Shown piece by piece: positions 117 to 63,350 of a DNA stretch of 63,350 nt. The notes under the pieces are model-generated. The model was not told the origin of the DNA. It saw nothing but the letters and a program-made list of their open reading frames with translations, and searched no databases. The translations under genes were made by a program, and so were the position numbers. Source of the DNA: an uncultured Dehalococcoidales bacterium (GTDB lineage: Bacteria > Chloroflexota > Dehalococcoidia > Dehalococcoidales > BS750m-G39); assembly GCA_964505425.1 (NCBI GenBank), contig CAZDHX010000001.1:55452-118801 (forward strand), in the 5' to 3' direction. Numbering within the stretch: the stretch's first letter is position 1; the number at the start of each line of letters is the position of its first letter.

Positions 117-204
117 AACCTCACCCCTTTATCTTCCCCCTCTCCATTCTTGGAGAGGGGGAAGATAAAATAAAAGAGGGGCTAGCGCCCCTCTTAAACA
201 CCCC
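117..204 (+). repeat. REP/BIME-like two-hairpin intergenic element, full copy 1
   Basis: AACCTCACCCCTTTATC-TTCCCCCTCTCCA-TTCT-TGGAGAGGGGGAA, A-rich spacer, AAGAGGGGC-TAGC-GCCCCTCTT-AAACACCCC. Same architecture at 37268, 56587, 61147 and 63274. Confidence 0.9.
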
Positions 205-234
205 GTTAAGTTAGCCTCTTTGGGGGGATGGGGT

Positions 235-1677
235 CTATGCTACAGAATCAAGATAGCGTCTGTACCATGCCAGGTGACTTAGCACCCTGGCCGCCCGGCG
301 TGGAGTTGGGTAGACCGGGATTCCTTCTCTGCGGAGGAGGGAGGCTATCTCGGGGTCGCTGGCGAATTCAACCGCCGGCTTCACCATAAGCACCGGCTTC
401 CCATACTCCCGTACCCGCTGCCGGAGCAAATCCAGGCTGTCCTTCTCCCTCTCCCGGAATGCCCGCACTTCCTCCCGGTTAAACACATCCGCTAGGCGCT
501 TGGTGCTGAACCCCACCGGCCCCTGAAGCAGGATAGCATCTACATTTTTATCCTCAATCAGTGCCCAGAGAGAGGAGAAGATTTTGGAATACTCAGTCAT
601 GCTTAAGCCAGCCATATCAACCGGATTGCCGTGAGACCATCTTGGCGGCAGGCAGGCGTTCAGTTTCTCTATGGTGGTCGGGGTGAGGTGGGCGACCTCA
701 AGCCCCTCCCTCTCGACGGCTTCAGCCGCCACCACCCCCAGCCCACCCCCGATGGTCAATATGCCTGTCCGGTTCGTGCGGGGTAATGGCTGATAGAGCA
801 GGGCAGTAACCACGTCGCAGAGGTCGTCGTCATCATCCACCCTTATCACCCCTGCCTGCTTGAATGCCGCCTCATAGACGGCGTCTGAACCGGCCAGGTT
901 GGCGGTATGAGACCTGATGGCTCGGGCAGACTCCTTGGTCCCACCCGCCTTTATGGCTACAATGGGCTTTTTAAGGGTGGTCTCCCTGGCTAGCTGGAGG
1001 AAGCGCCTCCCCTCCCTTAGCCCCTCAATGTAGGCGGCAATGATTCTGGTCTTCTCGTCCTGCGCCATATATTCCAGGTAGTCCTCCAGGTGCAGGTCGG
1101 CTTCATTACCGCCGCAGACAAACTTGCTGAAGCCAATCCCCAGGCTCATCCCGTTGCGCATTATGCGGTGCCCCATGTTGCCGCTCTGAGCTATTAAAGC
1201 TACCGGTCCCGGCGTGATTTTCTCCATCCAGGCGAGGGTGATGAGCTTGGAGTAGGTATTGGCATGTCCCATGCTGTTGGGCCCGATGAAGCGTATGCCT
1301 CCCTCCCGGGCAATCTTGACCAGCTCCGCCTCCAGCTTGCCGCCCTCCTTGCCGGTCTCGGCAAAGCCGCCGGAAACAACAACCGCCGTCTTCACCCCCT
1401 TCTGCACGCATTGCTGCATAATTTGGGGGACCTTGGGGGCGGAAACAGCGATGACGGCTAAATCAACCGCCCCCGGTATATTGACTACACTCTCGTAGGC
1501 GGGTATTCCCAGGATTTCTTTGGCGGTGGGGTTCACCGGGTAAATCTTTCGCTTGGTTGAGGCGAGGAGGTGACGCATGATGCCGTAGCCCCACGACCCC
1601 CTCGTATTAGAAGCGCCGATAACGGCTACGGAGTCGGGGGCAAATAGATACTTCCAGTGCTTGTCGCGTGTTGTCAT
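235..1677 (-). CDS. ADP-forming acyl-CoA/acetate-CoA ligase, alpha-type subunit (CoA-binding plus ligase domains)
   Basis: VAVIGAS CoA-binding fold, GPNSMG, QSG motif, phospho-His segment HTANLAGSD, NPVD. No fused ATP-grasp domain. Confidence 0.85.
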   Translation of the reverse strand: MTTRDKHWKYLFAPDSVAVIGASNTRGSWGYGIMRHLLASTKRKIYPVNPTAKEILGIPAYESVVNIPGAVDLAVIAVSAPKVPQIMQQCVQKGVKTAVVVSGGFAETGKEGGKLEAELVKIAREGGIRFIGPNSMGHANTYSKLITLAWMEKITPGPVALIAQSGNMGHRIMRNGMSLGIGFSKFVCGGNEADLHLEDYLEYMAQDEKTRIIAAYIEGLREGRRFLQLARETTLKKPIVAIKAGGTKESARAIRSHTANLAGSDAVYEAAFKQAGVIRVDDDDDLCDVVTALLYQPLPRTNRTGILTIGGGLGVVAAEAVEREGLEVAHLTPTTIEKLNACLPPRWSHGNPVDMAGLSMTEYSKIFSSLWALIEDKNVDAILLQGPVGFSTKRLADVFNREEVRAFREREKDSLDLLRQRVREYGKPVLMVKPAVEFASDPEIASLLRREGIPVYPTPRRAARVLSHLAWYRRYLDSVA

Positions 1678-1690
1678 ATTATTTGACCTT

Positions 1691-2338
1691 TTATTTGACC
1701 TTGACCAGAATCATAATATCCCCCGGCTGACCATCGGTTATGCGGCGGGCATTTCGCAGTCTTACCTTGGTTCCGGTCTTTACCCCGGCGGGGATTTTTA
1801 CCCGTAGCCTCTTACCCTTTCTGGTTAGGTCTTTCTCCGCCCCCCGGGCTGCCTGCTCTCTGGTGATGGTTATTTCGTAGCTAACCTCCCGCTGTCGGGG
1901 AGGTTGCGCCTGAGCGAATATTTCTTCAAGCCTCACCCCCCGTGGACCGCCAGCCCCCTGCCTATATACCTTGAAGGAAAAACTCCCCTTTCTCCCTTTG
2001 AGGACTTCGCCGAAGATTTCATCAAGGAAGCCAAGGCCAAGCCCGGAGCCGCCGAAGTCTTTCATTAAGTCCTCAAAGGTAGTCCGGGTATAAGGACTGC
2101 CGAAGATATCGCCGATATTGCCCGCCGTGCCGAACTGGTCGTACTGCTTTCTCTTTTCCGGGTCACCGAGGACGCCGAAGGCTTCGTTAATCTCCTTGAA
2201 CCTTTCGTTAGCCCATTGTTCCTTCCCCGGGTTGCGGTCGGGGTGGTATTGCATCGCCAGCTTGCGGTAAGCCTTCTTTATCTGCTCCTCGGTGGCGTTT
2301 TTGGGGACACCCAGAACCTGGTAGTAGTCCTTAGCCAT
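1691..2338 (-). CDS. Short DnaJ/CbpA-like J-domain protein without zinc finger
   Basis: KDYYQVLGV...YHPDRNP (HPD motif), G/F-rich linker, C-terminal VKIPAGV...KVRLR segment. Confidence 0.9.
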
Positions 2339-2439
2339 TACTATTCCTTATTCCGTAGTTTTATACTACAATTTACGCAGTCTTTCCGCAAGTTGACGAC
2401 ACGCTGCCCAGCATGCGATATGCTATAATTAGGTCGGTA

Positions 2440-3597: not shown

Positions 3598-3611
3598 ACT
3601 ACCCGTCAAGG

Positions 3612-4685: not shown

Positions 4686-5069
4686 ATAAAGGCAACCGGA
4701 AACTGGGTTCGGATACTCCTGGTTATTGCCGGCACACTCTTTGTCGGGCTGGGAGTCCTGGGCATATTTATACCTGTTTTGCCGACTACCCCCTTCCTTC
4801 TATTGGCGGCTGTCTGCTACGCAAGAAGCTCACAGAGGTTTTACCATTGGCTCTTGTATAACAGGTGGTTCGGGAGTTATATCAGGAATTATCTACAAAA
4901 AAGGGGAATTCCGCTAAGGGTAAAGGTCCTGACCATTGCTTTGCTGTGGATAACAATCGGGTGTTCGGTGGCATTTGCCGTTGAGGTTTTTGTCGTCAGG
5001 CTAATCTTGATTCTAATAGCTATCGGCGTTTCTATACATGTCCTCTCACTTCGGACTTTAAAGGAGTGA
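4686..5069 (+). CDS. YbaN/DUF454 family membrane protein (start uncertain)
   Basis: LGVLGIFIPVLPTTPFLLLAAVCYARSSQRFYHWLLYNRWFGSYI. The frame is open back to 4629 with no ATG/GTG/TTG before 4779. Confidence 0.8.
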   Translation: MKATGNWVRILLVIAGTLFVGLGVLGIFIPVLPTTPFLLLAAVCYARSSQRFYHWLLYNRWFGSYIRNYLQKRGIPLRVKVLTIALLWITIGCSVAFAVEVFVVRLILILIAIGVSIHVLSLRTLKE

Positions 5070-5515: not shown

Positions 5516-7186
5516 CTATAATTCTACAATTCCCCGGTCGGTGAGCCTGATTTCGGGGATTACTGGCAGGGCTAGAAATGAGAGGGTGGCAAATGGTGAA
5601 ATTAGCTTCGTGCCCATCTCGGCGGCTGTCCTCTCCAGCCCCTCCAGCTTGCTCACCACCGCCTCCAGCGGCTCATCAGATAGTATGCCGGCGATGGGCA
5701 GAGGCAGGCTGGCTAAAACCCTGCTCCCGCCAGCAACCACCAGACCACCCTGTAGCCGTTCAATCTCCTTGATGGCAGTGAGTATATCCTCGTCGCTGGC
5801 GCCGACAGCGATAATGTTATGAGAGTCATGGGCAATAGATGAAGCCAGCGCCCCTTTCTTCAAGCCAAATCCGCTGACCAGCCCCACGCCAATGTTCCCC
5901 GTCGCCTTGTGCCTCTCCACCACCACCAGTTTTAGAATATCCCTACTCATATCGGGGACAGAGCTGATTTTCTCCATTCTCTTGCGGGTGATTATCTGGC
6001 CGGGGACAATCTCAATAACCGGCATGGCTTCCCCTGAAGCTGGTAGCCTTAGCGCCTCAATATTAAAGGGTTTTATACTTACCGTATTGGTGAGTCCTCT
6101 GCCGCCGGCTGGGGGGAGGGGAAATACGGGCTTACCCTCTTGAGCGACGATTTTACCCTGGTAGAAGACCATCTCAATCTCAAGGCGTCTGAGGTCACTG
6201 AGGACAATCAGGTCGGCCATATAGCCGGGGGCTATCCCTCCCAGCCCGTCCCGCCGGAAGTACTGTGCCGGGTTGATGGTGGCAAGCTGAATTGCCCGCA
6301 CCGGCTCAAGCCCGAGCTTTATCGCCTTTCTGACTACGGCGTCAATATCGCCGTCCCGCAGCAGGTCAGCGCAACTACGGTCATCAACGACAAACAGGCA
6401 TCTATGGTAGGTCTTATCCGTGACCAGGGGGAGCAATGCCTCCAGGTTTTTCTCGGCAGAGCCTTCCCGGATCATGACAAACATGCCCTGTTTCAGCTTC
6501 TCCCTGGCTTCATCAAGGGATACCGATTCGTGGTCGGAATAGATGCCGGCGGCAATATAGCCGCTTAAGTCTTTGCCGCCGACGCCGGGGGCATGGCCGT
6601 CAACAATCTTCCCCTCAGCCAGGCTGATTTTGCTCAAGACCGTCTCATCGCCGCCGAGCACTCCGGGGAAGTTCATCACCTCCCCCAGCCCGATGACCTC
6701 CTTCAGTTTTAGAAGCTGGCGGATTTCTTCGGCGTTGATGCTGGCGCCTGAGGTTTCAAGGTGGGTTGCTGGCACGCAGGAAGGAGCCATGAGAAACAGG
6801 TCGAAGGGGAGGCGGCGGGCGTAGTCAAGAACGTATTTTATGCCCTCAAGACCGCAGACGTTGGCTATCTCGTGGAGGTCAGTAATAATGGCAGTCGTCC
6901 CGCGGGGTATTACAGCTCGGGCGTATTGGCCGATATCGAGCATTGAGCTCTCGGGGTGAATATGACCGTTGATAAGTCCGGGGGCGATATATTTGCCATT
7001 TAAGTCCAGAATCCTCTTTGCCTGATGGTAGTTCCCCACCCCGGCTATCCTGTCCCCATGGATAGCCACGCTAGCCGCTTCAATCTCGCCGCTGAAGACG
7101 TTAATTACCCGGGCGTTAGCCAGAATCAGGTCGGCGGGAGTTTCCCCTTTAGCCACCGAGATTAGTTCGGCGAGCCCCTTGACCAT
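5516..7186 (-). CDS. ade: Adenine deaminase
   Basis: GHIHPESS, DLHEIANV, GLGEVMNFPG, VDGHAP, SDHES, IREGSA, HDSHNI. Confidence 0.95.
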   Translation of the reverse strand: MVKGLAELISVAKGETPADLILANARVINVFSGEIEAASVAIHGDRIAGVGNYHQAKRILDLNGKYIAPGLINGHIHPESSMLDIGQYARAVIPRGTTAIITDLHEIANVCGLEGIKYVLDYARRLPFDLFLMAPSCVPATHLETSGASINAEEIRQLLKLKEVIGLGEVMNFPGVLGGDETVLSKISLAEGKIVDGHAPGVGGKDLSGYIAAGIYSDHESVSLDEAREKLKQGMFVMIREGSAEKNLEALLPLVTDKTYHRCLFVVDDRSCADLLRDGDIDAVVRKAIKLGLEPVRAIQLATINPAQYFRRDGLGGIAPGYMADLIVLSDLRRLEIEMVFYQGKIVAQEGKPVFPLPPAGGRGLTNTVSIKPFNIEALRLPASGEAMPVIEIVPGQIITRKRMEKISSVPDMSRDILKLVVVERHKATGNIGVGLVSGFGLKKGALASSIAHDSHNIIAVGASDEDILTAIKEIERLQGGLVVAGGSRVLASLPLPIAGILSDEPLEAVVSKLEGLERTAAEMGTKLISPFATLSFLALPVIPEIRLTDRGIVEL

Positions 7187-7713
7187 CAGCTCTCCTCCAT
7201 GGCATATATGTCAGGGAGATAGCGGAACCTCTCATTCCAGTCTATGCCGTAGCCGACGATGAATTTATTGGGGACGGTTAAGCCCAGATAGTCAATGTTG
7301 ACTGCGGTCTTACGCCTTGAGGGCTTATCGGTCAGGGTGCAGAGTTTTAAAGAGGCTGGCTTTTTCTTGCCCAGGTGCTCTAAAACGAAGGCGGTGGTGA
7401 GGCCGGTATCTATAATGTCCTCAATGACCAGCACGTGCCGGTCTTTAATCTCAGACTGGACATCCTGCACCAGCTTAATCTTCCCCGGACTCTGGCCGCC
7501 GCCATAGCTGGACAGCCGTATAAAATCCACCTCAAGGGGGAAGTCAAGGAGGCGGATAAGGTCAGCCATGAACATGAACGAGCCCTTGAGGACGCCGATG
7601 AGAAGGGGGCGCTTATCGCGGTAGTCCCGCCCGATTTCAGCCGCCAGCCTCCTGACGGTGGCGGCAATCTCTTCCCCGGTGAAGAGGGGAGTGAGTTTAG
7701 GCTCAGAACCCAT
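7186..7713 (-). CDS. hpt: Hypoxanthine phosphoribosyltransferase
   Basis: GVLKGSFMFMADL, VLVIEDIIDTGLT, FIVGYGID. Stop overlaps the ade start. Confidence 0.95.
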   Translation of the reverse strand: MGSEPKLTPLFTGEEIAATVRRLAAEIGRDYRDKRPLLIGVLKGSFMFMADLIRLLDFPLEVDFIRLSSYGGGQSPGKIKLVQDVQSEIKDRHVLVIEDIIDTGLTTAFVLEHLGKKKPASLKLCTLTDKPSRRKTAVNIDYLGLTVPNKFIVGYGIDWNERFRYLPDIYAMEES

Positions 7714-35022: not shown

Positions 35023-35145
35023 CTGACTCTCCTTATTGAGGTATGTCAGAGTATAGCACTGCTCGGTGATATTGGCAATCAAAGGGGCTTGACAGCCTTT
35101 GATGGAGCATACTATTCTATATATTATGAGTCCCGAGGGGGAGAA

Positions 35146-37194
35146 ATGCGTATAGAAAGCATAGGCACTACTGAGCACCTGGGCTCGGTGAAGATTTACG
35201 GCGTGCGCCGGGTCCTTGAGTTAGACTCGGGGGTGAAACCCCTTCAAGATGACATTCCGGAAGTCCAGAGAATCGAGAAGGAGGCTCTTGAAGATATTGA
35301 GCGGCGGATGGTGGTTGTGCTCCCCATCAAAAACGAAAACCTTAAGGTCTTTGAGGGTGTGCTCAGTGGCGTACCTCACGACTGCCTGATGATAGTAGTC
35401 TCCAATAGCCGGAGGGGGGAAGTGGATACCTTTGGCAATGAGCGGGATATCTTAGCTCGGTTTTGCCACGCTACCAAACGCCAGGCTTTGATTGTTCATC
35501 AAAAAGACCCTGCCCTGGCTGAGGCTCTCAGACAAGCCGATTATGGTGAGGTCCTGGCTGAGGATGGGTTGGTGAGGAATGGGAAGAGCGAGGGGATGAT
35601 GATAGGGATTTTATTGACTATGCTGCATGGCAAGGATTACGTGGGGTTTATTGATACCGATAATTACATACCAGGTGCCGTCTGGGAGTATGTGAAGCAC
35701 TACGCCATCAGCTTTAGCCTAGCCCAATCCCCCTATGTTATGGCCAGGATTTTATGGCATTATAAGCCTAAGATTGCCGGGGAGATATTTTTTAAGAAGT
35801 GGGGGAGGGTCTCGGAAATAAGCAATAAATACATAAATCACCTCTTATCGACAAAGAAAAGATTTGAAACCGAGATTATAAAGACAGCCAATGCCGGAGA
35901 GCACGCCATGAGCATAGAGCTGGCCAAGATGCTCACCTACGGCTCCGGCTATGCTGTTGAAGTGCAGGAACTGATGTCCATCTTTGAGCAGTTTGCCGAG
36001 ATACTGCCTATAAGCGACAAGACGGCGGCGGAGAAGGGGGTAGAGCTAATTCAAACCGAGACGATAAACCCCCACCTTCATGAGGAAAGGGGTGGCGAGC
36101 ATCTGGTGCAGGACATGTTATTGCCCAGCCTTTCCGTCATCTACCATAGTCCCCTTTGCGAATTATCCACCAAGCACCTCATCTTTAACCAGTTGCTGGA
36201 GCAGGAGTGTTTGAAGCCAACGGATGAGGTCCCCAAGATGAGGCTTATCCCCCCGCCTCAAAAAGCAGATATGCAGAAGTTCGCCCGGGCAATTGAGGCG
36301 CAGCTCCCCGGGTATTCAGTGCCCAAGGGACGAGTATTACGCGAGAGGTTAATCAATGCTGAATTTGGTCGGTCAGAGGCGGCGGTGCGAAAGGTGGTGT
36401 TTACCGATTTGGACGGCAGTCTGCTTCACCCCCTCACCTATTCCTATACCCAGGCGCTGGATGCCTTAAGACTGCTGCAGGAAAAGGGGATACCAATCGT
36501 ATTCTGCTCGGCAAAGACAAGGGCTGAGCAGGAGGTTTATAGAAGGGAGCTGGGGGTAAAAGACCCATTTATAGTTGAAAATGGGGGGGCTATCTTTATT
36601 CCACGGGATTATTTCCGTCTCAATTTTGCCTATGACAAGGCGACCACGGATTATCTTGTGATTGAGCTGGGCACTCCCTACCCGGAAGTGAGACGAAAAC
36701 TAAAGAAGGCTGTTGAGGGGGAGACTGGCTGCCGTGTTATCGGTTTTGGCGATATGAGTGTAGAGGAGGTGGCTCGCCAGACCGGTCTAAGTTTGACTCT
36801 TGCCGAGTTTGCTAAGCAAAGGGAGTACAGCGAGACGGTCAAGATTGAAGGTAATAAGAAGGATATAGACCGCGTGGTAAAGAAGATTGAGCAGGCAGGG
36901 CTTAACTGTGTCTTCGGGGGAAGGTTTTACGGGGTGACGGAAGGGAGCGATAAGGGTAAGGCAGTCAAGGTCCTGTCCGAGCTTTTCAAGCTAAATATGG
37001 GCAAGATAAAGACCATCGGTATCGGGGATACTGATAGTGATTTGCCGATGCTGGCGGTGATGGACCTGCCAATATTGGTGCAGGAGCAGCGCAATCGGTG
37101 GCGAAAGCTGAAGCTGCGGAATGTACGTAAGGTTAAAGGGGTGGGACCGGAGGGGTGGAGTGCAGCGGTTAGAGGGCTGGTGGTCGTCGACTAG
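35146..37194 (+). CDS. mgsD: Bifunctional mannosyl-3-phosphoglycerate synthase/phosphatase
   Basis: N-terminal MPGS (VLPIKNE, FIDTDNYIPGAV.EY, YKPK, WGRVSE, NAGEHA) fused to a HAD-IIB phosphatase (FTDLDGSLL, ENGG, IGD..SD). ATG 35146 follows GAGGGGGAG. Confidence 0.9.
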   Translation: MRIESIGTTEHLGSVKIYGVRRVLELDSGVKPLQDDIPEVQRIEKEALEDIERRMVVVLPIKNENLKVFEGVLSGVPHDCLMIVVSNSRRGEVDTFGNERDILARFCHATKRQALIVHQKDPALAEALRQADYGEVLAEDGLVRNGKSEGMMIGILLTMLHGKDYVGFIDTDNYIPGAVWEYVKHYAISFSLAQSPYVMARILWHYKPKIAGEIFFKKWGRVSEISNKYINHLLSTKKRFETEIIKTANAGEHAMSIELAKMLTYGSGYAVEVQELMSIFEQFAEILPISDKTAAEKGVELIQTETINPHLHEERGGEHLVQDMLLPSLSVIYHSPLCELSTKHLIFNQLLEQECLKPTDEVPKMRLIPPPQKADMQKFARAIEAQLPGYSVPKGRVLRERLINAEFGRSEAAVRKVVFTDLDGSLLHPLTYSYTQALDALRLLQEKGIPIVFCSAKTRAEQEVYRRELGVKDPFIVENGGAIFIPRDYFRLNFAYDKATTDYLVIELGTPYPEVRRKLKKAVEGETGCRVIGFGDMSVEEVARQTGLSLTLAEFAKQREYSETVKIEGNKKDIDRVVKKIEQAGLNCVFGGRFYGVTEGSDKGKAVKVLSELFKLNMGKIKTIGIGDTDSDLPMLAVMDLPILVQEQRNRWRKLKLRNVRKVKGVGPEGWSAAVRGLVVVD

Positions 37195-37267
37195 GCTTTT
37201 TTCTACCTCACCCCCTCTTTACCCTAAAAAATCTGTGATTTTTCAGGGAACCCGAATTTAATATGGT

Positions 37268-37353
37268 AACCTCACCCCCTGTATCCCCCTCTCCTTCTCA
37301 AGGAGAGGGGGAATTTAATTAAAAGAGGGGCGTTAGCCCCTCTTAAACACCCC
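37268..37353 (+). repeat. REP/BIME-like two-hairpin element, full copy 2 (extra partial leader at about 37205-37250)
   Basis: AACCTCACCCCCTGTAT-CCCCCTCTCCTT-CTC-AAGGAGAGGGGG, spacer, AAGAGGGGC-GTTA-GCCCCTCTT-AAACACCCC. Confidence 0.9.
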
Positions 37354-38034: not shown

Positions 38035-38083
38035 TTCCCCCTTCCCCTTGTCAAGGGGAAGGGGGATAAAGGGGGATAGGGTC
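38035..38083 (-). repeat. REP-like element, hairpin-A-only copy
   Basis: TTCCCCCTTCCCCTTG-T-CAAGGGGAAGGGGG-ATAAAGGGGGATAGGGT. Confidence 0.85.
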
Positions 38084-46076: not shown

Positions 46077-46147
46077 GGCAAGCCTCCGTAATGTTAGCTT
46101 CACCCAGTATAGCAGAATAAGAGTGGGCAATGAATATGTTTCGGGGG

Positions 46148-46184
46148 TCTGGACAGGGGGTGGGGACTGGGGTATAATAGCGCC
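46148..46184 (+). promoter_or_regulatory. Sigma70 promoter, copy 1 of a 37-bp duplicated sequence
   Basis: TGGACA-17-TATAAT; 33/37 identical to 46720-46756. Confidence 0.8.
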
Positions 46185-46206
46185 AATATTATTATGGAGG
46201 TGAATC

Positions 46207-46611
46207 TTGTTAAAAGCTCTAAAGATCTTGATAATCATCTGGTCGGCGTTTGGGATTTTGATTGGTCTGGGCATGATATTTGCTCCTCAACAAATGGGTA
46301 ACATGCAGGGTTACGCAACGGAGGGACCCGCCTACATACCCTATATGCTGGCTTCGATTGGCGCCATGCTCGTGGTGAGTTCATCCTTTATCATAGCCGC
46401 CGTGTCACGGGACCTGCTGAAGAACATTCTCTGGGTACAGTTTGCCATAGCGGGGGCTATTATTTCTGTAGCCGTCGCTGTGTACGCAATGCTGATGGGT
46501 TTCGTTAACTTCCAGCAGGTGGGAATGAGCGTTATCATGGATGGCGCCTTCGCTGTGGCTTTCCTGGCGCTGTATCCCTGGGGTGGTGCGGCACGCAGTC
46601 GCAAGAAGTAA
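46207..46611 (+). CDS. Four-helix hypothetical membrane protein
   Basis: TTG after GGAGGTGA; four hydrophobic segments. Confidence 0.75.
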   Translation: MLKALKILIIIWSAFGILIGLGMIFAPQQMGNMQGYATEGPAYIPYMLASIGAMLVVSSSFIIAAVSRDLLKNILWVQFAIAGAIISVAVAVYAMLMGFVNFQQVGMSVIMDGAFAVAFLALYPWGGAARSRKK

Positions 46612-46669
46612 GTAAGTTTAGATTTTTATAATTGGTCTGCTTGTAGGTCGTACTTTCCGTAGGAGACTT

Positions 46670-46694
46670 GAGAGGGGGCTTTAGCCCCCTCTTT
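46670..46694. repeat. REP-like element, hairpin-B-only copy (possible terminator)
   Basis: GAGAGGGGGC-TTTA-GCCCCCTCTTTT. Confidence 0.75.
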
Positions 46695-46719
46695 TCTTTT
46701 GCTCCTTGCCTTCCGGCGG

Positions 46720-46756
46720 TCTAGACAGGGGGCGAGGGCTGGGGTATAATAGCGCC
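46720..46756 (+). promoter_or_regulatory. Sigma70 promoter, copy 2 of the 37-bp duplicated sequence
   Basis: TAGACA-17-TATAAT. Confidence 0.8.
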
Positions 46757-46783
46757 GGTTTCATGCCTTATTGAGGAGGGCTT

Positions 46784-47716
46784 ATGCAATCGGGCACTGT
46801 TTTGGCTACCTCCATAACATCGCTCATTGGTTTCCTCCTCAATAGCACCATTCTGGCTCTTGTCCTCTCGCGGGGAAGAAAACTTTATCATTACCTTTTC
46901 AGCGGCTTTCTTTTCATCTGTGCCCTGTGGGACCTCGGCATATTTCTGTCCATGATACGGAACACCCATGTCAACGAGCTGCCCATCTATGGCAAAATAA
47001 TCTGGTGGCCGTGCGTTTTCATGTTCGCTATTATCTTTCACTTCACCTGCTCCTACCTCAACCAGCCGAGGAAGAAGAGGATAATTTTTATCTGGGCCGC
47101 TTCTGCCCTTATCTTTATTCTCGGCGTCACCGGCTTGGGGGGAAAGATTGTAGGCGTTTACAACTATAGCTGGGGGAACATCTACCGGCCCGATTCCATG
47201 CTACTTATGGGTAACCTCGCGGGGTTACCACTTGCGTACTTCTTCGGCGTGTCGGCGCTTTACTTCCTGTTCCGTGCTTACAAGAGGGAACGCTCGTCAC
47301 TAAAAAAGCGCCACATTCTCTACATCCTTATCAGCTTTTTTATAGTCCATCTGGCCGTGTCGAAGGTGGCTATACTTTACGGTATTGACAATCGTTACTT
47401 GATGCCGACCTGCATGTTCTTAAACGACATTGCCGCCGCCTTGGTAGGCATCGCCATTATAAAGTATCGGCTCTTTGACATCACCGTTATCATAAAGAAG
47501 ACGACCATATATTCGGCGCTGGCGGCAATCGTTATCTTTGTCTTTAGTATGTCCGAGCACCTGCTGTCTACTTATGTGGGGCAGCTGCTGGGCGAGGAAT
47601 CAATGTATATTCACCTCATCTCAATAGCCGCTGTGGTTGGTGTTTTCATGCCGGTTAGGGGGAGGCTGGAGCGTGCTATCGAGCGCGCCTTTGCCCAAAA
47701 GAAGGTGAAGTTCTAG
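46784..47716 (+). CDS. HisKA_7TM-like multi-pass sensor domain with no output domain
   Basis: About 9-10 hydrophobic segments with KYRLFDI...TTIYS. The ORF ends right after the last helix; no kinase or cyclase domain. Confidence 0.6.
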   Translation: MQSGTVLATSITSLIGFLLNSTILALVLSRGRKLYHYLFSGFLFICALWDLGIFLSMIRNTHVNELPIYGKIIWWPCVFMFAIIFHFTCSYLNQPRKKRIIFIWAASALIFILGVTGLGGKIVGVYNYSWGNIYRPDSMLLMGNLAGLPLAYFFGVSALYFLFRAYKRERSSLKKRHILYILISFFIVHLAVSKVAILYGIDNRYLMPTCMFLNDIAAALVGIAIIKYRLFDITVIIKKTTIYSALAAIVIFVFSMSEHLLSTYVGQLLGEESMYIHLISIAAVVGVFMPVRGRLERAIERAFAQKKVKF

Positions 47717-47729
47717 CCGCCGAGGGTGG

Positions 47730-55921: not shown

Positions 55922-56527
55922 TTACTCTCTTTTCATTAAGAGCGCTATACTTTTGGCTGTGAAATTCTCGGGTGGCGGAAACGGGAAAGCAGCTTCATTT
56001 TTCCGACTTAGCACTTGTGCCGGCGTCTTTGCATGGCGCGCCACTCTCAGCAGTATTCGAGATTTTTTAGTGTACTCATTGGTTGCTACAGTGATGTCAA
56101 TGGTGAATGTTTGAGTTGTGTGTGGGTCTAAACTATAGATGACGAAAAAGATACATTTGTTACCTATGCTGTCAACCCCGTCCATTCTAATAAAATCATA
56201 GCTTATAGATATGTTTGATATTTTTGCCGATAAGTTTGCTGATGAGAATGGTTTCCCATCTTTAGGATTAATTTTGATATCACCGGTTCTTAAATCACAG
56301 TTCTCCCCGTAGAGTTTTACCCAGATATCAAACAGTACTTCTTCAGTCCTATTTTGAACATGAAAAGTAGTCTTTATATTCCATGGTTGCGCTTTCAGAC
56401 TAATCCGCTTAGGAGAGATTATTACAGGGGCTCGAAATTTCTTACAGACGAAAGGAATAGCTACAACAAGTATTGTAACTATTATACCGACTACACCAAT
56501 TATTATGCCAATAGTAAGGGCAGTCAA
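55922..56527 (-). CDS. AT-rich hypothetical protein with an N-terminal TM anchor and a beta-rich soluble domain
   Basis: TTG after AAGGAG; TGgTAGAAT promoter; GIIIGVVGIIVTILVVAIPF helix. Confidence 0.7.
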   Translation of the reverse strand: MTALTIGIIIGVVGIIVTILVVAIPFVCKKFRAPVIISPKRISLKAQPWNIKTTFHVQNRTEEVLFDIWVKLYGENCDLRTGDIKINPKDGKPFSSANLSAKISNISISYDFIRMDGVDSIGNKCIFFVIYSLDPHTTQTFTIDITVATNEYTKKSRILLRVARHAKTPAQVLSRKNEAAFPFPPPENFTAKSIALLMKRE

Positions 56528-56586: not shown

Positions 56587-56669
56587 GGGTATTTAAGAGG
56601 GGCTTTAGCCCCTCTTTTTAATTTTCTCCCCCTCTCCTTTGAAGGAGAGGGGGATTAAGGGGGAGAGGT
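56587..56669 (-). repeat. REP/BIME-like two-hairpin element, full copy
   Basis: Reverse complement ACCTCTCCCCCTTAAT-CCCCCTCTCCTTC-A-AAGGAGAGGGGG, spacer, AAGAGGGGC-TAAA-GCCCCTCTT-AAATACCC. Confidence 0.9.
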
Positions 56670-56715: not shown

Positions 56716-57606
56716 ATGGCTGAAGTTGAGCCGGTTACTGACGAAATCTACCGCTTGGGAGTGCAAATTCCCGGGGCAAACGCCGTCTTTGCCGTTTACT
56801 TTATCAAGGACGGCGACGGCGCCATCATAGAGCCGGGTCCGGCGGTGGTTGTCCCCGAAATCCAGGGGGCGGTGGTGGAGCTGGGGCTGTCCGAGCCGAC
56901 ATATATCATCCCCACCCATATCCATCTTGACCACGCCGGTGGGGTGGGGAGGCTGGCGGAGGTCTTCCCCGAAACAAAAATCGTGGTCAATCAGCGGGGG
57001 GTGAAGCATGTAATTGAGCCGTCGCGGCTGATTGAGAGCACCCGCATGGCTTTTGGCGATGACTTTGAGACCATCTACGGCCCCATTCTGCCCGTGCCCG
57101 AGTCGCGGCTCAAGGTGGTGGCGGATGGGGAGCAGCTGGCGGTGGGGGGGCGGGAGCTGGTCGTCATCTACACCCCCGGTCATGCCCCGCACCACATATC
57201 CGTCTTTGATACCAAAACGAGGGGGCTGTTTTGCGGGGAGGCGCTCGGTCTTATCTATAGCCCGGGCTATCCGCCGCTGCCGGCGGTAGCGCCGCCGAGC
57301 TTTGATATGGAGCTATACCTCAATGATATGGAACGGCTGAGGGCGCTGAAGCCCAAGCTTTTATTCTACTCTCACGGCAGTGTCGCCAGCGAGCCGGAGA
57401 AGCTGATTACCACTGCTATGGAGAACACCAGGCTGGTCGGCGATTTCATCCTGCGCGATTTGAAGGCGGGGGAGGGTGAGGAGGCAATAATCAGCCATGT
57501 CGGGGACTACCTCCGTGACCACCTCGGCGTTACTCTGGACGAGTATGAGCTGTGGAGCAACGTCAGCGGCTATATCCATTACTTCCGGAAAAAGGGTCTG
57601 GTATAG
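56716..57606 (+). CDS. Metallo-beta-lactamase-fold hydrolase (YtnP/YflN-like)
   Basis: THIHLDHAGG, TPGHAPHH, GEALG, YSHG. Confidence 0.9.
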   Translation: MAEVEPVTDEIYRLGVQIPGANAVFAVYFIKDGDGAIIEPGPAVVVPEIQGAVVELGLSEPTYIIPTHIHLDHAGGVGRLAEVFPETKIVVNQRGVKHVIEPSRLIESTRMAFGDDFETIYGPILPVPESRLKVVADGEQLAVGGRELVVIYTPGHAPHHISVFDTKTRGLFCGEALGLIYSPGYPPLPAVAPPSFDMELYLNDMERLRALKPKLLFYSHGSVASEPEKLITTAMENTRLVGDFILRDLKAGEGEEAIISHVGDYLRDHLGVTLDEYELWSNVSGYIHYFRKKGLV

Positions 57607-57691: not shown

Positions 57692-60250
57692 GTGGCAAGT
57701 GAAGGCGTAACCCCCATCAGGCGGCAGTACCTCAGAATTAAGCGCCGCTATCCCGAGGCGATTGTCCTCTTTCGTCTCGGCGATTTCTACGAGACCTTTG
57801 ACGAGGATGCTCGTATTACCTCGCGGGAGTTGGAGATTGTCCTGACCTCAAGGGAGATGGGGAAGGGGCACCGCGTCCCGATGGCGGGCATCCCCTATCA
57901 TGCCCTTGATAACTACCTGGCAAAATTAATCAATCGCGGCTATAAGGTGGCTATCTGTGAGCAGCTCACCAGGCCCGGCGAGACCAAGGGCTTGGTCCAG
58001 CGCGAGGTCATCCGGCTGGTAACACCGGGCACGGTGGTTGAGCCGAGTCTGCTTGATAGCAAGAGCAACAACTATCTGGTCAGCGTAGTTCCGGGTGGGG
58101 AGGAGGTGGGCATCGCCTACGTTGACATCACCACCAGCGAGTTTGCCACCACCCAGCTTCCCTTTCACCGCGCCATTCCCGAGCTGGAGCGGCTCAAGCC
58201 ATCTGAAATTATTGCCGGCAAGGGCGCCGATTTATCAGCAGTCAAGCTAACTGCCCCGGTAACCCGCCTTGAAGACTACTGGTTTGAGCCTGAAATCGCT
58301 GAGAAGACTCTGCTTGACCACTTCGGCGTGGCTACCCTTGACGGCTATGGTTGTGCCCACTTGCCTCTGGCAACGCAAGCCGCCGGGGCTATCATTCACT
58401 ATATTCAGGAGACGCAGAAGGGGGTTCTGGGGCAGCTAGGACGTCTTTCTACTTACTCCACTGACCTGTTTATGGCGCTGGACGAACAGACCCAGAGAAA
58501 CCTTGAGCTTTTCTCTGGCAGCCGCTCGGGGAGTGTTGGCGGCTCGCTGCTGGGGGTGATTGACCTGACCCGGACGGCGATGGGGGGTAGATTACTGAAG
58601 CGGTGGCTTGGTCAGCCCCTGCTTGATATCGCCGAGCTGAACAAGAGACAGGACGCCATCGGCTGGTTTTATCACAATACCCTCGCCCGCGGTCAGACCG
58701 TATCACTGCTCGGGGAGGTGGCTGACCCGGAGCGCTTGATTAACCGCATAAAGGGTGGTATTGCCGCCCCCCGCGAGTTGACCAGTCTTCGCCGCAGCCT
58801 GGAGGTAATACCGAAGCTCAGGCAGGTGCTTGAGCCAGCAGACTGGCTCAAAGACGAGCTGAAGCCCTGCCCTGAGGTGGTGGATTTGATTTCCCGGGCA
58901 CTTGTTGAATCACCGGGAAGCCTGGAGGAGGGTGGGGTGGTGAGGCAGGGTTTCTCCGAGGAACTGGACAAGCTCCGTGAATCGTCCAAGAATGCCAAGC
59001 AGTACCTGGCTGACCTTGAGCGCCAGGAGAGGGAGAAAACCGGCATCAAGTCGCTGAAGGTGGGCTTTAACAAGGTCTTCGGCTACTATATTGAGGTCTC
59101 CAAGCCAAATCTGCCCCAGGTGCCCCAGGACTATATCCGGAAGCAGACGCTGGTCAACGGCGAGCGCTTCTTTACCCCGGAGCTGAAGGAGTATGAGTCG
59201 TTAATTCTAAACGCCGAGGGCAGGATTGCCGAGCTTGAGGGGCAAATATTCCGTCAGGTGTGTAGCCAGGTGGGGGCGGAAAGCGAGCGCATCTCGGCTT
59301 CAAGCCTCGCCTTAGCCAATATAGATGTCCTCTCCAGTCTGGCTGAGGTCGCCGTGCGCTATAACTATGTCCGACCCAAATTGACCACGGACAGCGAGAT
59401 AGTTATCTCTGACGGGCGCCACCCGGTGGTGGAGAGGAGCCTGCCTGAAGGCAGCTTTGTCCCCAACGATGTTTATCTCTCAAACGGTGACGCCCAGCTT
59501 ATCGTCCTTACCGGCCCCAACATGTCGGGCAAGTCAACCTACTTGAGGCAGGTAGCCTTGATTGTGCTCCTGGCTCAGGTAGGCAGCTTTGTCCCGGCGG
59601 AATCGGTAACTATGGGCATCGTTGACCGCATCTTCACCCGCATCGGCGCTCGTGAAGACCTCCCCGCCGGTCAGTCAACCTTTATGGTGGAGATGGTGGA
59701 GACGGCCAATATCCTGAATAACGCCACCCCCCGCTCACTGATTATTCTCGATGAAATCGGACGTGGAACCAGCACCTACGACGGACTTTCCATTGCCCGC
59801 GCCGTCGCTGAGTATATTCATAGTTATCCCCGGCTGGGCGCCAAGACCCTCTTTGCCACCCATTACCACGAATTAGTTGGGCTGGCCGCCTTTTTGTCCC
59901 GCGTCAAGAACTTTAATGTTGCCGTGAGCGAGGAGGGAGGGGAGGTTACCTTTTTATATAAGATTGTCCCCGGCGGCGTTGACAAGAGCTACGGCATTCA
60001 TGTCGCCAAGCTCGCCGGTCTGCCCAAGTCTGTGGTGCACCGCGCCCGCGAGGTTCTGGAGGAACTGGAGGGGGACAGCCGCACCGCCGCCCCCCAGAAA
60101 CGGCGAAAAGAGATAGCCCAGCAGTTGCCATTATTGGGGCAAAAATCGCCGCTTTTTGATGAACTTGAGAAGCTGGACATTGATTCTCTAACCCCGCTTG
60201 AAGCCATCACCAAGCTCTACGAGCTGCAGAAGAAGGCGAGGGAGGGGTGA
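57692..60250 (+). CDS. mutS: DNA mismatch repair protein MutS
   Basis: RLGDFYETF, MAGIP, GPNMSGKSTY, DRIFTRIG, STFMVEM, DEIGRGTST, FATHYHEL. Confidence 0.98.
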   Translation: MASEGVTPIRRQYLRIKRRYPEAIVLFRLGDFYETFDEDARITSRELEIVLTSREMGKGHRVPMAGIPYHALDNYLAKLINRGYKVAICEQLTRPGETKGLVQREVIRLVTPGTVVEPSLLDSKSNNYLVSVVPGGEEVGIAYVDITTSEFATTQLPFHRAIPELERLKPSEIIAGKGADLSAVKLTAPVTRLEDYWFEPEIAEKTLLDHFGVATLDGYGCAHLPLATQAAGAIIHYIQETQKGVLGQLGRLSTYSTDLFMALDEQTQRNLELFSGSRSGSVGGSLLGVIDLTRTAMGGRLLKRWLGQPLLDIAELNKRQDAIGWFYHNTLARGQTVSLLGEVADPERLINRIKGGIAAPRELTSLRRSLEVIPKLRQVLEPADWLKDELKPCPEVVDLISRALVESPGSLEEGGVVRQGFSEELDKLRESSKNAKQYLADLERQEREKTGIKSLKVGFNKVFGYYIEVSKPNLPQVPQDYIRKQTLVNGERFFTPELKEYESLILNAEGRIAELEGQIFRQVCSQVGAESERISASSLALANIDVLSSLAEVAVRYNYVRPKLTTDSEIVISDGRHPVVERSLPEGSFVPNDVYLSNGDAQLIVLTGPNMSGKSTYLRQVALIVLLAQVGSFVPAESVTMGIVDRIFTRIGAREDLPAGQSTFMVEMVETANILNNATPRSLIILDEIGRGTSTYDGLSIARAVAEYIHSYPRLGAKTLFATHYHELVGLAAFLSRVKNFNVAVSEEGGEVTFLYKIVPGGVDKSYGIHVAKLAGLPKSVVHRAREVLEELEGDSRTAAPQKRRKEIAQQLPLLGQKSPLFDELEKLDIDSLTPLEAITKLYELQKKAREG

Positions 60251-61053
60251 GGGTGAATAGCTCTAATAGCTCCATTAGCCCTATTCCATTGTCAAGATAC
60301 ATTGGTAAATGTATATACTGCGGGTCTACTGATGACTTAACCGATGAACACATTGTGCCACGTGGTCTTGGTGGTCCTTGGCTATTGCTTGAGGCAAGTT
60401 GTAAAAAATGTGCCAAGGTTACCTCGGGTTTTGAACGGGGTGTACTGAGAAAATTCTTTATTCTGGTGCGTACGAAGTTGGGCTTACCGACCTATCACCC
60501 TAAAAATAGGCCAAAAACCTTTCCCTTCCTTGTCACAATAGGCGGGAAAGAAAAGGTCTTGGAAGTTCCAGTGTCTGATTGTCCCACCTTGTTCATGATG
60601 CCGTTGCTTGGGAAACCGGGTTATATTCGTAAAGATACTCAGGTTAAGGGCATGGTGGTGTCAGGGATGAGTTTACACGGAAAAGAAAGCGAACTTCGAG
60701 AATTTAAGGCTAAATACAATATTGAGAGCATATCTTATACTAGAGAGCTACGCACAAGTTTTGCGCGTGTTCTTGCCAAAATCGCGTATGGAATGGCTGT
60801 AGCTAAATATGGCCTTGACATGATTGAAGAAGCCTATGTGCTTCCATGTATACTGGACCCCAAAAATGATGTTGGTCAATGGGTTGGGTGCGAGGCCCCC
60901 CATGAGTCCCCTGCCCTTCTTCAGCGAGAACAATACTTTCATAGGATAGATATCCTTATAAATAAGAGCGAAGTAGGGGCCCGAGTAAGGCTATTTGCTA
61001 ATTACCAGACACCTGAATATCTGGTTATTGTAGGCCGACTAAAGGGGCACTAA
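60247..61053 (+). CDS. HNH-type (HNH_5-like) endonuclease-domain protein
   Basis: CIYCG...LTDEHIVP.GLGG...SCKKC. GTG overlaps the mutS TGA. AT-richer than mutS. Confidence 0.75.
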   Translation: MRVNSSNSSISPIPLSRYIGKCIYCGSTDDLTDEHIVPRGLGGPWLLLEASCKKCAKVTSGFERGVLRKFFILVRTKLGLPTYHPKNRPKTFPFLVTIGGKEKVLEVPVSDCPTLFMMPLLGKPGYIRKDTQVKGMVVSGMSLHGKESELREFKAKYNIESISYTRELRTSFARVLAKIAYGMAVAKYGLDMIEEAYVLPCILDPKNDVGQWVGCEAPHESPALLQREQYFHRIDILINKSEVGARVRLFANYQTPEYLVIVGRLKGH

Positions 61054-61146
61054 CCCCTCCCCCCACACCCGTGTTTTCTTTTTCCAAACCCACCCGCCCT
61101 CAAAGCCTTCACGGTTTATTCCTTCGTTTTATCCCCACCCCCCACA

Positions 61147-61237
61147 GGGGTTAAAGGGGCGTAAGCCCCCTTAAAAAACAAATTCCCCCTCTCCTTCACC
61201 AATTCCCAAAGGAGAGGGGGATAAAGGGGGTGAGGTT
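61147..61237 (-). repeat. REP/BIME-like two-hairpin element, full copy with a longer loop
   Basis: Reverse complement AACCTCACCCCCTTTAT-CCCCCTCTCCTT-(12 nt)-AAGGAGAGGGGG, spacer, AAGGGGGC-TTAC-GCCCCTTT-AACCCC. Confidence 0.88.
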
Positions 61238-61286
61238 ACAAATAATCTCGTTGCTATACATAAGCTAGTGTGCTATATTTTGGGTA

Positions 61287-62486
61287 ATGAAAGCCGGGAT
61301 TGAGGCTATTCCTGAGGGCACGGTTACCTCGCCTGAGGGTTTTTTTGCCGGTGCTACCTCCGCCGGCATAAACAAAAAAGCCGAAGATAAGCCAGACCTC
61401 GGCGTTTTGTTTTCCGAGGCGCCATGTGTGGCTGCGGCTTTATTTACTACTAACCGGATTAAGGCAGCCCCGGTGGTCCTCTCTCAGCAGAAGCTAAAAA
61501 AGGGGAGGGCAGGGGCGGTGGTGGTGAATAGCGGTTGCGCCAACGCTTGCACGGGGGAGCGGGGCATTAAGGACGCGGCCGAGATGGCAGAGCTAACCGC
61601 CGAGGGCATTGGCATGTCGCCGGAGGACGTGCTGGTCGCCAGCACCGGCGTTATTGGCGTGCCCCTGCCGATGAAGCAGATAGCCCCTGCCATTGAGCAG
61701 GTTATCCTCTCCCGGGACGGCGGTCATGAGCTGGCAAGGGCGATAATGACCACCGATACCGTTGCCAAGGAAACGGCGGTCAGGGTCAGTGTGGGCAGTA
61801 GCCAGTTTACCGTTGGCGGGGTAGCCAAGGGGTCGGGGATGATTCACCCTGACCTGGCGACCTTGCTCTGCTTCCTGACTACCGATGCCGCCGTAGAGCT
61901 TGATTTTGCTAAGGCGGCTTTGAAAAAGGCGGTGGACGTCTCGTTTAACATGGTTTCTATTGACGGGGACACCAGCCCCAACGATATGGTATTGCTGCTG
62001 GCTAACGGTCGGGCGGGGGGCAGTACGCCGCCTGATGCCTTTGAGCAGGCTCTGGAAAAGGTCTGCCTTTATCTGGCGAAGCGCATTGCCGCTGATGGGG
62101 AGGGGGCGAGTAAGCTTATTGAGGTAACGGTCGGCGGTGCTCGCAGTCTGGCTGAGGCGAGACTGGCGGCAAGGACGATTGTAAGTTCGCCCCTGGTGAA
62201 GGCGGCGGTTCACGGCGCCGACCCCAACTGGGGGCGGATTATGGCGGCCCTGGGTCGGAGTGGGGTGGAGGTTGAAGAAGTCAAGACCGACCTTTATATT
62301 GGCGATATACGGGTGGTGAATGCAGGCGCGCCCTCACCCTTCGATGAGCGGGGGGTAATCAGGCTACTGGAGGCAAAAGAGGTGGCGATAAGCTTAAGTC
62401 TTAACCTCGGCTCAGCGAGCGCCACCGCCTGGGGTTGCGACCTGTCTGAGGAATATGTCACTATTAATAGTCAATATATGACATAA
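61287..62486 (+). CDS. argJ: Bifunctional ornithine acetyltransferase/N-acetylglutamate synthase
   Basis: [64 protein letters not shown]. Confidence 0.96.
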
Positions 62487-62487
62487 A

Positions 62488-63264
62488 ATGAGCAAGGTTA
62501 TTGTTGTTAAAATCGGTGGGGCTACTTTGGGCAGTCAGGACACCACCATTGAGGACGTCGTCTCCCTCCAGGAGCAGGGTAAGTCGCTGGTTATCGTCCA
62601 CGGCGGTGGCAAGATAATAACCGACTGGCTGGAGAAGAGGGGGATTGCCACCAGGTTTGTCAACGGCGAGCGGGTAACCGATGAGCCGACCCTTGAGGTG
62701 GTGGTCTCGGCGCTGGCGGGGCTGGTCAATAAGGAGATTGTCGCCGATATAAATGCCCTGGGAGGAATGGCAATAGGTATTAGCGGCGTGGACGGAGGCT
62801 TGATTCAGGGCAAAATTAAGGACAGGGAACTGGGTTATGTTGGTGAGGTGGCTAAGGTAAATCCGGCGCCGCTTGAGGCGCTACTAAAGTCCGGCTATAT
62901 CCCGGTGGTGGCTCCGGTGAGCCTTTATGCCGGTAAGCCGGATAAACCAAAGGTGCTTAATATCAACGCCGATGCTGTCGCTGGGGAGGTTGCGGCGGCG
63001 ATTGGCGCTGAGAGGCTTGTCATCCTGACTGATGTCGTTGGCGTCTGCGACCAGTCGGGCAATTTGCTGCCCGATATATCCCCCGATGAAGCCGAGGCTC
63101 TACTGGCTTCGGGGGTGGCTTCAGGGGGGATGATTCCCAAGATTAAGGCGTGTCTGAGGGCGCTCTCCGGAACCCGAGTTACCCGCATCATAGACGGTAG
63201 GAAGCCACACGTCTTGCTCGACGAGATTGAGGGCAAAGGCGGCGGCACAACTATAAATAAGTAA
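62488..63264 (+). CDS. argB: Acetylglutamate kinase
   Basis: VKIGGA, VHGGGK.I, GERVT, NINADAVA, LTDV.GV, GGMIPKI, IIDGR. Confidence 0.96.
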   Translation: MSKVIVVKIGGATLGSQDTTIEDVVSLQEQGKSLVIVHGGGKIITDWLEKRGIATRFVNGERVTDEPTLEVVVSALAGLVNKEIVADINALGGMAIGISGVDGGLIQGKIKDRELGYVGEVAKVNPAPLEALLKSGYIPVVAPVSLYAGKPDKPKVLNINADAVAGEVAAAIGAERLVILTDVVGVCDQSGNLLPDISPDEAEALLASGVASGGMIPKIKACLRALSGTRVTRIIDGRKPHVLLDEIEGKGGGTTINK

Positions 63265-63273
63265 ATATATAAG

Positions 63274-63350
63274 GAGAGTTAAAGAGAGGCGAAGCCTCTC
63301 TTAAGAAAAACCTTCCCCCTTCCCCTTGGTAAGGGGAAGGGGGATAAAGG
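63274..63350 (-). repeat. REP/BIME-like two-hairpin element, variant copy cut by the window edge
   Basis: Reverse complement CCTTTAT-CCCCCTTCCCCTT-ACC-AAGGGGAAGGGGG, spacer, AAGAGAGGC-TTC-GCCTCTCTT-TAACTCTCC. Confidence 0.88.

Follow-up and report, generated by a model that had tools for sequence, protein, structure and literature searches.

A dispersed intergenic repeat of Dehalococcoidia probably built of two intrastrand purine-motif triplex motifs

We studied a family of short intergenic repeats in a 63,350-nt stretch of DNA (the window; assembly GCA_964505425.1, contig CAZDHX010000001.1, positions 55,452 to 118,801) from an uncultured Dehalococcoidales bacterium, in which an initial annotation had described seven elements made of two hairpins, A and B, with a conserved "leader" (ACCTCACCCCC) and "tail" (AAACACCCC). 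Comparison of sequences indicates that this is probably a dispersed DNA repeat consisting of two intrastrand purine-motif triplex motifs, placed back to back on the G-rich strand with an A/T spacer between them, and that the two third strands are complementary to the leader and the tail. Throughout, Y denotes the pyrimidine arm, R the purine arm and RH the reverse-Hoogsteen (third) strand, and the strand given is the G-rich one; module B is a class I triplex motif (order RH-R-Y) and module A a class II motif (Y-R-3-nt loop-RH).

Results

The third strand mirrors the purine arm under the purine-motif code, with G.G-C, T.A-T and A.A-T triplets. Motifs were defined as in ITxF, that is, as three consecutive domains on one strand, with R and Y in Watson-Crick pairing and RH antiparallel to R, a stem of 6–15 nt, at most one mismatch and short loops. 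Among the copies in the window (E1 to E7, Table 1), module A of E1, E2, E3 and E6 falls within this definition (12–13 triplets, 0–1 mismatch, loops of 3–6 and 3 nt), and that of E4 satisfies the triplet rule but has a first loop of 10 nt, above the limit of 6. Module B conforms with 8 of 8 triplets in E1, E2 and E5, and with 7 and one mismatch in E3. A triplex finder run over all copies of module A returned 12–14 triplets with 0–1 mismatches, and 6–8 triplets for module B. Candidates with a stem of at least 8 numbered 10 in the window versus 0.03 in dinucleotide shuffles, and those with a stem of 12 numbered five versus none.

The relation was then followed in 185,579 species genomes, scanned for module A with the hairpin alone constrained, which gave at least 120 loci and 149 hairpins among the matches listed. 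An RH segment compatible with R at 9 or more of 10 positions accompanied 102 of these 149 hairpins, on one side only in 100 of them and at 2–5 nt (usually 3–5 nt) from R, while shuffled flanks reached this compatibility in 0.65% of trials. Flanks at this level were in mirror orientation in 104 cases versus 24 in direct orientation; an alternative in which the leader pairs with the pyrimidine arm by Watson-Crick rules, which would need a direct repeat of R, was therefore rejected. At position 7, A in R was accompanied by T in RH (19/19) and G by G (78/78), and at position 11, which was free in the search pattern, G in R was accompanied by G in RH in 22 of 28 cases, with G never found there otherwise (p = 5e-15). 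Opposite A, RH carried T 148 times and A 86 times, and C never stood opposite a purine in the conserved core. Given that T occurs opposite A in the third strand, the C-rich strand does not fit a pyrimidine motif, consistent with a purine motif on the G-rich strand.

For module B, mean compatibility across 135 distinct copies was 0.829, compared with 0.737 ± 0.008 when partners were permuted. Its stem classes pair R AAGAGGGG with RH GGGGTGTY, GAAGGGG with RGGGWAG, AAGAGAGG with RGAGAGTY, and AAGAGGGA with AGGGAGTT, and the variants in the window obey this class rule, with GGAGAGTT facing AAGAGAGG in E5 and GGGGTT facing AAGGGG in E4. Orthologous copies that follow cinA shift all three strands together, from runs of five (CCCCC/GGGGG/GGGGG) in E6 to runs of four in a close relative (L122), and the copy after argB is of the CCCCCTTCCCC type in the window and reads CCCCCTCCC / GGGAGGGGG / GGGGGAGGG in another (L123). 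From the architecture annotated earlier as fixed, the two hairpins stand, whereas the leader and tail are not unstructured flanks and covary with the stems as third strands. It appears that the three-stranded relation is maintained and not accidental.

Both hairpins were present in the minimum-energy single-stranded-DNA fold of every full copy, with z-scores of −3.2 to −10.6; the third strands are left unpaired in these ViennaRNA folds, as the program has no triplet model. Stem pairing was assessed in an alignment of 94 distinct composite copies, taken from the window, three close relatives and metagenome contigs. Standard pairs formed in 95.9% of cells, and two-sided changes occurred in 14 of 22 stem pairs, amounting to 119 cells compared with 28.7 in shuffles (0 of 500 shuffles reached 119), although the copies share descent and cell counts overstate independent events. 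Slid controls all scored far lower than the observed pairing. The annotated view that compensatory changes keep structure rather than sequence is borne out by these counts.

All seven annotated sites were found when the sequence of the window was read directly, and a hairpin A pattern (CCCCCTYYCC-N5-20-GGRRAGGGGG) had six exact matches, at 136, 37285, 38037, 56628, 61185 and 63315, versus none in 100 dinucleotide shuffles. The plus and minus labels of the initial annotation refer to the C-rich strand, and its sites did not include an orphan leader at 37204–37216, which is probably a decayed copy adjoining E2. The site at 38035–38083 (E6), described as hairpin A only, also carries a leader (GGGGGATAGGGT, 38070–38082) that matches its purine arm AGGGGAAGGGGGA, and lies on the strand opposite to that implied; it is located 170 nt downstream of cinA, itself on the minus strand, and synteny identifies the copy that follows cinA in L122 as its orthologue. 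Membership in the family is doubtful for E7 (46670–46694), which matches 56599–56629 (hairpin B and spacer) at 81%, but has no RH segment, was missed by the triplex finder and is best read as an ordinary terminator-like G+C hairpin. E3 sits between divergent genes, 55922–56527 (minus) and 56716–57606 (plus), and its orthologue occupies 4891–4973 of a third relative, L125. Module A of E4 ends 49 nt upstream of the argJ start, and its loop is identical to that at 9278–9332 of L125.

Table 1. Repeat modules and related segments in the window. Parts are written on the G-rich strand.
Feature	Class	Position	Strand	Parts	Triplets and remarks
E1 module A	II	119..163	-	Y 152-163, loop 146-151, R 134-145, loop GAT 131-133, RH 119-130 = AAAGGGGTGAGG	12 triplets, 1 mismatch (generic triplex finder); fold agrees
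E1 module B	I	174..204	-	RH GGGGTGTT 197-204, T 196, R AAGAGGGG 188-195, loop 182-187, Y 174-181	8/8 triplets; then T-rich spacer on minus strand; terminator-like, sense to gene 235-1677
Orphan RH-like segment		37204..37216	-	GGGGGTGAGGT	motif match, no hairpin
E2 module A	II	37268..37312	-	RH 37268-37280, loop 37281-37283, R 37284-37296, loop 37297-37299, Y 37300-37312; TCCCCCTCTCCTT-GAG-AAGGAGAGGGGGA-TAC-AGGGGGTGAGGTT	13/13 triplets, no mismatch (triplex finder); fold agrees
E2 module B	I	37323..37353	-	GGGGTGTT-T-AAGAGGGG-CTAACG-CCCCTCTT	8/8 triplets
E6 solo module A	II	38036..38082	+	TCCCCCTTCCCCT / AGGGGAAGGGGGA / TAA / AGGGGGATAGGGT	13 triplets, 1 mismatch
E7 hairpin + T-run		46670..46693	+	GAGAGGGGGC-TTTA-GCCCCCTCTT	
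E3 module B	I	56587..56616	+	GGGTATT-T-AAGAGGG...	7 triplets, 1 mismatch
E3 module A	II	56627..56669	+	TCCCCCTCTCCT / AGGAGAGGGGGA / TTA / AGGGGGAGAGGT	12/12 triplets
E4 module B	I, short variant	61147..61172	+	GGGGTT-A-AAGGGG C gtaa G CCCCCTT	6 compatible triplets (read directly; fold agrees)
E4 module A	II, long loop	61184..61238	+	ACCAATTCCC	14 triplets, 1 Watson-Crick mismatch
E5 module B	I, variant	63273..63302	+	GGAGAGTT-A-AAGAGAGG-CGAAG-CCTCTCTT	8/8 triplets; directly after argB stop
E5 module A	II, variant	63313..63350	+	CCCCCTTCCCCTT / AAGGGGAAGGGGG	RH strand beyond window end

Module A with its third strand was found in 78 of the 120 loci listed from the species-genome scan, in at least 12 phyla as named in record titles: Chloroflexota, Cyanobacteria, Planctomycetota, Gemmatimonadota, Armatimonadota, Acidobacteriota, Myxococcota, Desulfobacterota, several classes of Proteobacteria, Ignavibacteriae, Bacteroidota and Clostridia. 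Among the matches listed, a class I partner lay upstream on the same strand in 5 of 95 modules bearing a third strand, all on Dehalococcoidia-type contigs, and outside such contigs the partner of module A was absent, in tandem or on the other strand; the composites in the species-level collection belonged to Dehalococcoidia/Dehalococcoidales metagenome-assembled genomes (MAGs) and to one MAG labelled Deltaproteobacteria. The repeat had been considered lineage-specific, which does not hold for the widespread core module. The metagenome scan, anchored solely on R-loop-RH of module A, recovered the composite in 75 of 87 distinct copies with a canonical Y arm. Joining a class I to a class II motif in a fixed unit on a single strand appears to be a feature of one Dehalococcoidia clade.

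Two further arrangements were observed. In three-module contigs (L142, L163, L179, L188, L207, L229 and L238), an inverted A' of the CCCCCTTCCC type is combined with B and A, such that A' and the standard A flank and share one palindromic hairpin B in a layout resembling that of REPINs. In a nested-palindrome subfamily (L137, L152, L173, L174, L175, L181, L194, L215, L225 and L239), an A/T-rich imperfect palindrome of about 27 nt lies inside the loop of A (CCCCCTC-ATGATAGGAATATATATCCATATCAT-GGAGAGGGGG), and purine arm and third strand are intact.

Knowledge of BoxC repeats, or potential intrastrand triplex (PIT) elements, in E. coli goes back to the 1990s, and the PIT element was reportedly described by Hoyne and colleagues in 2000. 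Of 5426 complete E. coli genomes, 5410 contain a BoxC-like 36-mer (CCCCTCTCCCTTTGGGGAGAGGGTTAGGGTGAGGGG), at a median of 17 places per genome; this 36-mer has the AGA/TGA core of module A in the window together with a TTA loop. BoxC, PIT and TM_ECO are names for one repeat, which is strictly intergenic, without orientation or functional bias, and around which sequence variability among strains is raised (Holder et al., 2015, PMC4666352). Module A is an element of this kind. The two share the one-strand class II design of C-rich arm, loop, G-rich arm, 3-nt loop (TTA/TAA) and G/T/A third strand, and the AGA/TGA core (GGGAGAGGG-TTA-GGGTGAGGG in E. coli, GGAGAGGGGG-ATWAA-GGGGGTGAGG here); they are always or nearly always intergenic, occur in both orientations, often contain one mismatched triplet and vary between close relatives. 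The initial annotation had stated that a match to a catalogued family would take away the novelty of the repeat, and BoxC/PIT/TM (PMC4666352) is such a match.

The window elements are nevertheless a sister variant of TM_ECO and not TM_ECO itself. The TM_ECO pattern (CCCTCNCCC-N3-6-GGGNGAGGG-N3-GGGNGAGGG) had no match in the window, where it misses the copies because G-run lengths are shifted, and three matches in 245 loci, all in proteobacterial MAGs. Stems are 12–14 here versus 9 in E. coli, and the class I module is joined on the same strand, whereas an E. coli pair consists of two class II motifs, one on each strand. The E. coli study describes an abundance of similar G/C-rich motifs in cyanobacteria and does not mention Chloroflexota (PMC4666352). 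Our cyanobacterial matches, in records of Nostoc, Dolichospermum, Tolypothrix, Oscillatoria, Aerosakkonema and Leptolyngbyaceae, have the same hairpin and third strand (CCCCCTTCCC...GGGAAGGGGG..GGGGGGTTAGGT), but their partner module either follows in tandem or occupies the other strand; among the matches listed, an R-first partner was seen only on Dehalococcoidia-type contigs. A follow-up literature search found no paper assigning a function to TM_ECO/BoxC, and a full-text search for the repeat strings gave only unrelated eukaryotic papers. There is also a likeness to the homopurine/homopyrimidine mirror repeats that form H-DNA, in that the third strand mirrors the purine arm and uses reverse-Hoogsteen G.G-C, A.A-T and T.A-T triplets. 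Unlike in H-DNA, the Y arm shares a strand with R and RH and covaries with R, which points to one single strand folded back twice rather than a supercoiled duplex.

Orthologous sites were compared in L122, L123 and L125, whose ArgJ is 83–86% identical to that of the window; ArgJ has many relatives at 76–88% identity, and those that are named are Dehalococcoidia MAGs. Copies were present or absent at orthologous sites. The site upstream of argJ is filled in the window (E4) and L122 and empty in L123, from which the module A third strand is clearly absent. The argB-argD junction is filled in the window (E5) and L123 and empty in L122 and L125 (argB/argD overlap, no spacer), and the argD-argG junction is filled in L125 and empty in L122 and L123. 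At the junction of the adenine deaminase and phosphoribosyltransferase genes (ade-prt), a metagenome contig (L213) contains a full composite, and the window (7165–7195) and L245 are empty. The E4 orthologue in L125 has the same loop and is displaced by an extra gene, and each of the four genomes has a different gene upstream of argJ. Gene calls in L125 (ena:ERZ25039515 contig_71484) need care: the gltD-like gene, mutS and argG are each split into 2–3 called open reading frames (ORFs), which suggests assembly frameshift errors.

Alignment blocks between relatives run up to E3, E4 and E5 and break off at their edges, and near E6 they end 170 nt away, at the stop of cinA, although such ends are only partly informative because intergenic DNA aligns poorly anyway. 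No clear target-site duplication was found at three filled/empty pairs (argD-argG, upstream of argJ and ade-prt), whose junctions are blurred by local sequence replacement. Element ends resemble Shine-Dalgarno (SD) spacers at empty sites. The module B third strand could be a pre-existing target sequence, as GGAGAGTCA resembles an SD sequence at empty sites, an idea that these sites neither support nor exclude.

The initial annotation had placed the family with repetitive extragenic palindromic (REP) sequences, bacterial interspersed mosaic elements (BIMEs) and REPINs, which would be moved in trans by a REP-associated tyrosine (RAYT; Y1 HUH) transposase encoded elsewhere in the genome. The two groups do resemble each other in being short, dispersed, hairpin-forming intergenic palindromes in mosaics whose structure is maintained by compensatory changes and whose copies are present or absent between relatives, and the inverted A'-B-A composites of some relatives recall REPIN doublets. 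However, the 94-copy alignment contains no invariant GTAG-like tetranucleotide, its invariant columns being the G/C runs of the arms and third strand, and the conserved flanks are mirror, not inverted, repeats of the purine arms; no connection with mobile elements was found for TM_ECO, the counterpart in E. coli (PMC4666352). A RAYT origin is thus very unlikely in our assessment, and the proposed kinship is not upheld. As annotated, the window contains no evident mobiliser, a Pfam scan of its approximately 55 genes having given no match to transposase families. The window and 243 copy-bearing loci (1.56 Mb together) yielded 6558 ORF segments, none of which was matched at E ≤ 10 in a single-query phmmer search with E. 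coli RayT (NC_000913), a weak negative given that single-sequence searches are insensitive.

An HNH_5 ORF beside E4 was considered as a mobiliser and rejected, as no homologue lies near any other copy. This ORF (268 aa, 60247–61053) overlaps the mutS stop, has no homologue in 1.5 Mb of related loci and is missing from L125, in which the repeat and another gene come after mutS.

A census of 126 copies, anchored on purine arm and third strand and based on rough ORF calls, placed 114 outside ORFs of at least 100 aa, in all four flank configurations, including 12 between divergent genes; a cluster of short distances from third strand to start codon was given no weight, since the ORF caller takes the first ATG/GTG/TTG behind a stop and the element contains TAA, TGA and GTG. 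Could the copies be ordinary, possibly bidirectional, intrinsic terminators that look alike through shared constraints? Every full copy does have a G+C-rich hairpin beside a T-rich tract (the spacer), E6 follows cinA, and the E4 orthologue in L125 lies 12 nt after a minus-strand gene. A hairpin with a sense T-run downstream of a gene is found at E1, E7 and weakly at E2, but not at E3, which lies between divergent genes, nor at E4 and E5, whose T-runs are antisense to the arg genes. E5 and the copies in L125 and L213 lie inside operons, and most copies lack terminator orientation: by the rough ORF calls, only 20 of 56 classified copies have a T-run in the sense orientation to the neighbouring gene, 9 of the 26 whose spacer is T-rich and 11 of the 30 whose spacer is A-rich. 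A mirror-image third strand has no role in termination, and earlier work found neither promoter nor terminator activity for PIT elements in E. coli (PMC4666352). We therefore regard terminators as a quite improbable explanation, with termination at most an occasional secondary use, in agreement with the annotated view of a dispersed intergenic family that is not simply a set of terminators.

An action in RNA, as a cis-regulatory or stabilising element, an RNA triple helix or an SD-like sequence (AAGGAG, GGGGTGA) beside a hairpin, was weighed in the same gene contexts. SD-like strings occur on the G-rich strand, and at the filled argD-argG site of L125 the module A third strand lies 6 nt before the argG GTG, in place of the GGGAGAG of the empty site. 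On the other hand, copies face either way relative to the genes beside them and also lie between divergent ones, RNA is reported not to form purine-motif triplexes (PMC4666352), and a C-rich transcript does not fit a pyrimidine motif, since the third-strand T becomes A. Rfam gave no match in the window at the gathering score, the best sub-threshold one being PyrR (26.5 bits versus a gathering score of 54), and E-value mode gave chance-level matches only. An RNA-level role is accordingly highly improbable as the basis of the family.

The genes around the repeats in the window are of housekeeping type, including mfd, mutS, comEC/comEA, argJ/argB, proB/proA-type genes and acyl-CoA dehydrogenases. 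Also present is a gene for a bifunctional mannosyl-3-phosphoglycerate synthase/phosphatase, a 701-aa fusion with a HAD phosphatase (35089–37194), which resembles the bifunctional mannosylglycerate synthase described for Dehalococcoides, in keeping with the lineage of the DNA. Exact look-ups of this protein and of ArgJ returned no record. A promoter-like site with an upstream TG (TTGCTA-17-TATATT, 61251–61287) ends 8 nt before the argJ ATG and is kept in L122, L123 and L125, and argJ appears to be nearly leaderless. Between comEA and trkA, a 1.6-kb segment (46121–47724) is absent from L122 and L123. Two 46-nt promoter-like copies (46139–46184 and 46711–46756; 87% identical, TGGACA/TAGACA-17-TATAAT, 11/12 match) precede small ORFs at 46207–46611 and 46784–47716, which have hydrophobic N-termini and no Pfam match.

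Discussion

We infer that the two-triplex fold of the single-stranded G-rich strand is what selection or copying preserves in these repeats. When the G-rich strand becomes single-stranded during replication, repair or transcription, each hairpin would form, and its third strand would occupy the major groove through G.G-C, T.A-T and A.A-T triplets. Folding of this kind could stall polymerases and promote local rearrangement, and the element may persist and spread as a structure-dependent, non-coding and probably selfish repeat, single copies of which may sometimes be recruited to serve as terminators or ribosome-binding sites. The isolated strand of TM_ECO, the counterpart in E. coli, forms a stable triplex in vitro (PMC4666352).

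Several observations weigh against a fold of this kind, in addition to the shared descent of the copies. No triplex signal was obtained from double-stranded TM_ECO or by in vivo dimethyl sulfate (DMS) footprinting in E. coli (PMC4666352). In one common subclass, which combines GGGAAGGGGG and GGGGGTTAGG, one triplet is systematically mismatched (19/27), and the third strand strongly favours T opposite the first A of the core and A opposite the second, beyond what the triplet code needs, indicating that another constraint or shared descent acts too. Regarding gain and loss, given that neither a target-site duplication nor a mobiliser was found, the differences between relatives could reflect deletion or recombination and not insertion.

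The preference at the two A positions, which is held from E. coli to Chloroflexota, could reflect binding by a conserved host protein able to recognise G-rich mirror repeats or hairpins, comparable to IHF in some BIMEs, and the four runs of G4-5 on one strand could likewise mark G-quadruplex sites. A single protein site, however, would have no need of covariation among three segments. Distances of 9, about 35 and 5 nt separate the G-runs, the pyrimidine arms compete for them, and A/T covariation would be irrelevant to quadruplexes. We attach very little probability to either version, and a pair of intrastrand triplex motifs accounts for the repeat with good likelihood.

A tentative and rather unlikely extension is that the composite is a true mobile unit, in which the doubly folded single-stranded DNA would be the recognition structure for copying or insertion. 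The unit would insert preferentially at G-rich, SD-like intergenic spacers, its third strand supplying a new ribosome-binding site. Recognition of folded single-stranded DNA would then be comparable to that of attC sites and IS200/IS605 ends, but would be read through a triple helix. If so, BoxC-type repeats could share a mechanism from E. coli to Chloroflexota and cyanobacteria.

What is new here is that the same putative triplex design with an AGA/TGA core recurs in at least a dozen phyla, and that covariation between third strand and hairpin provides comparative evidence that the three-stranded relation itself is maintained. For annotation, these elements should be filed neither as REPs nor as terminators or small RNAs. 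Given that the Dehalococcoidia clade is densely sampled in metagenomes, with filled and empty sites in conserved operons, it may offer a practical system for asking how such elements move and what they cost or provide.

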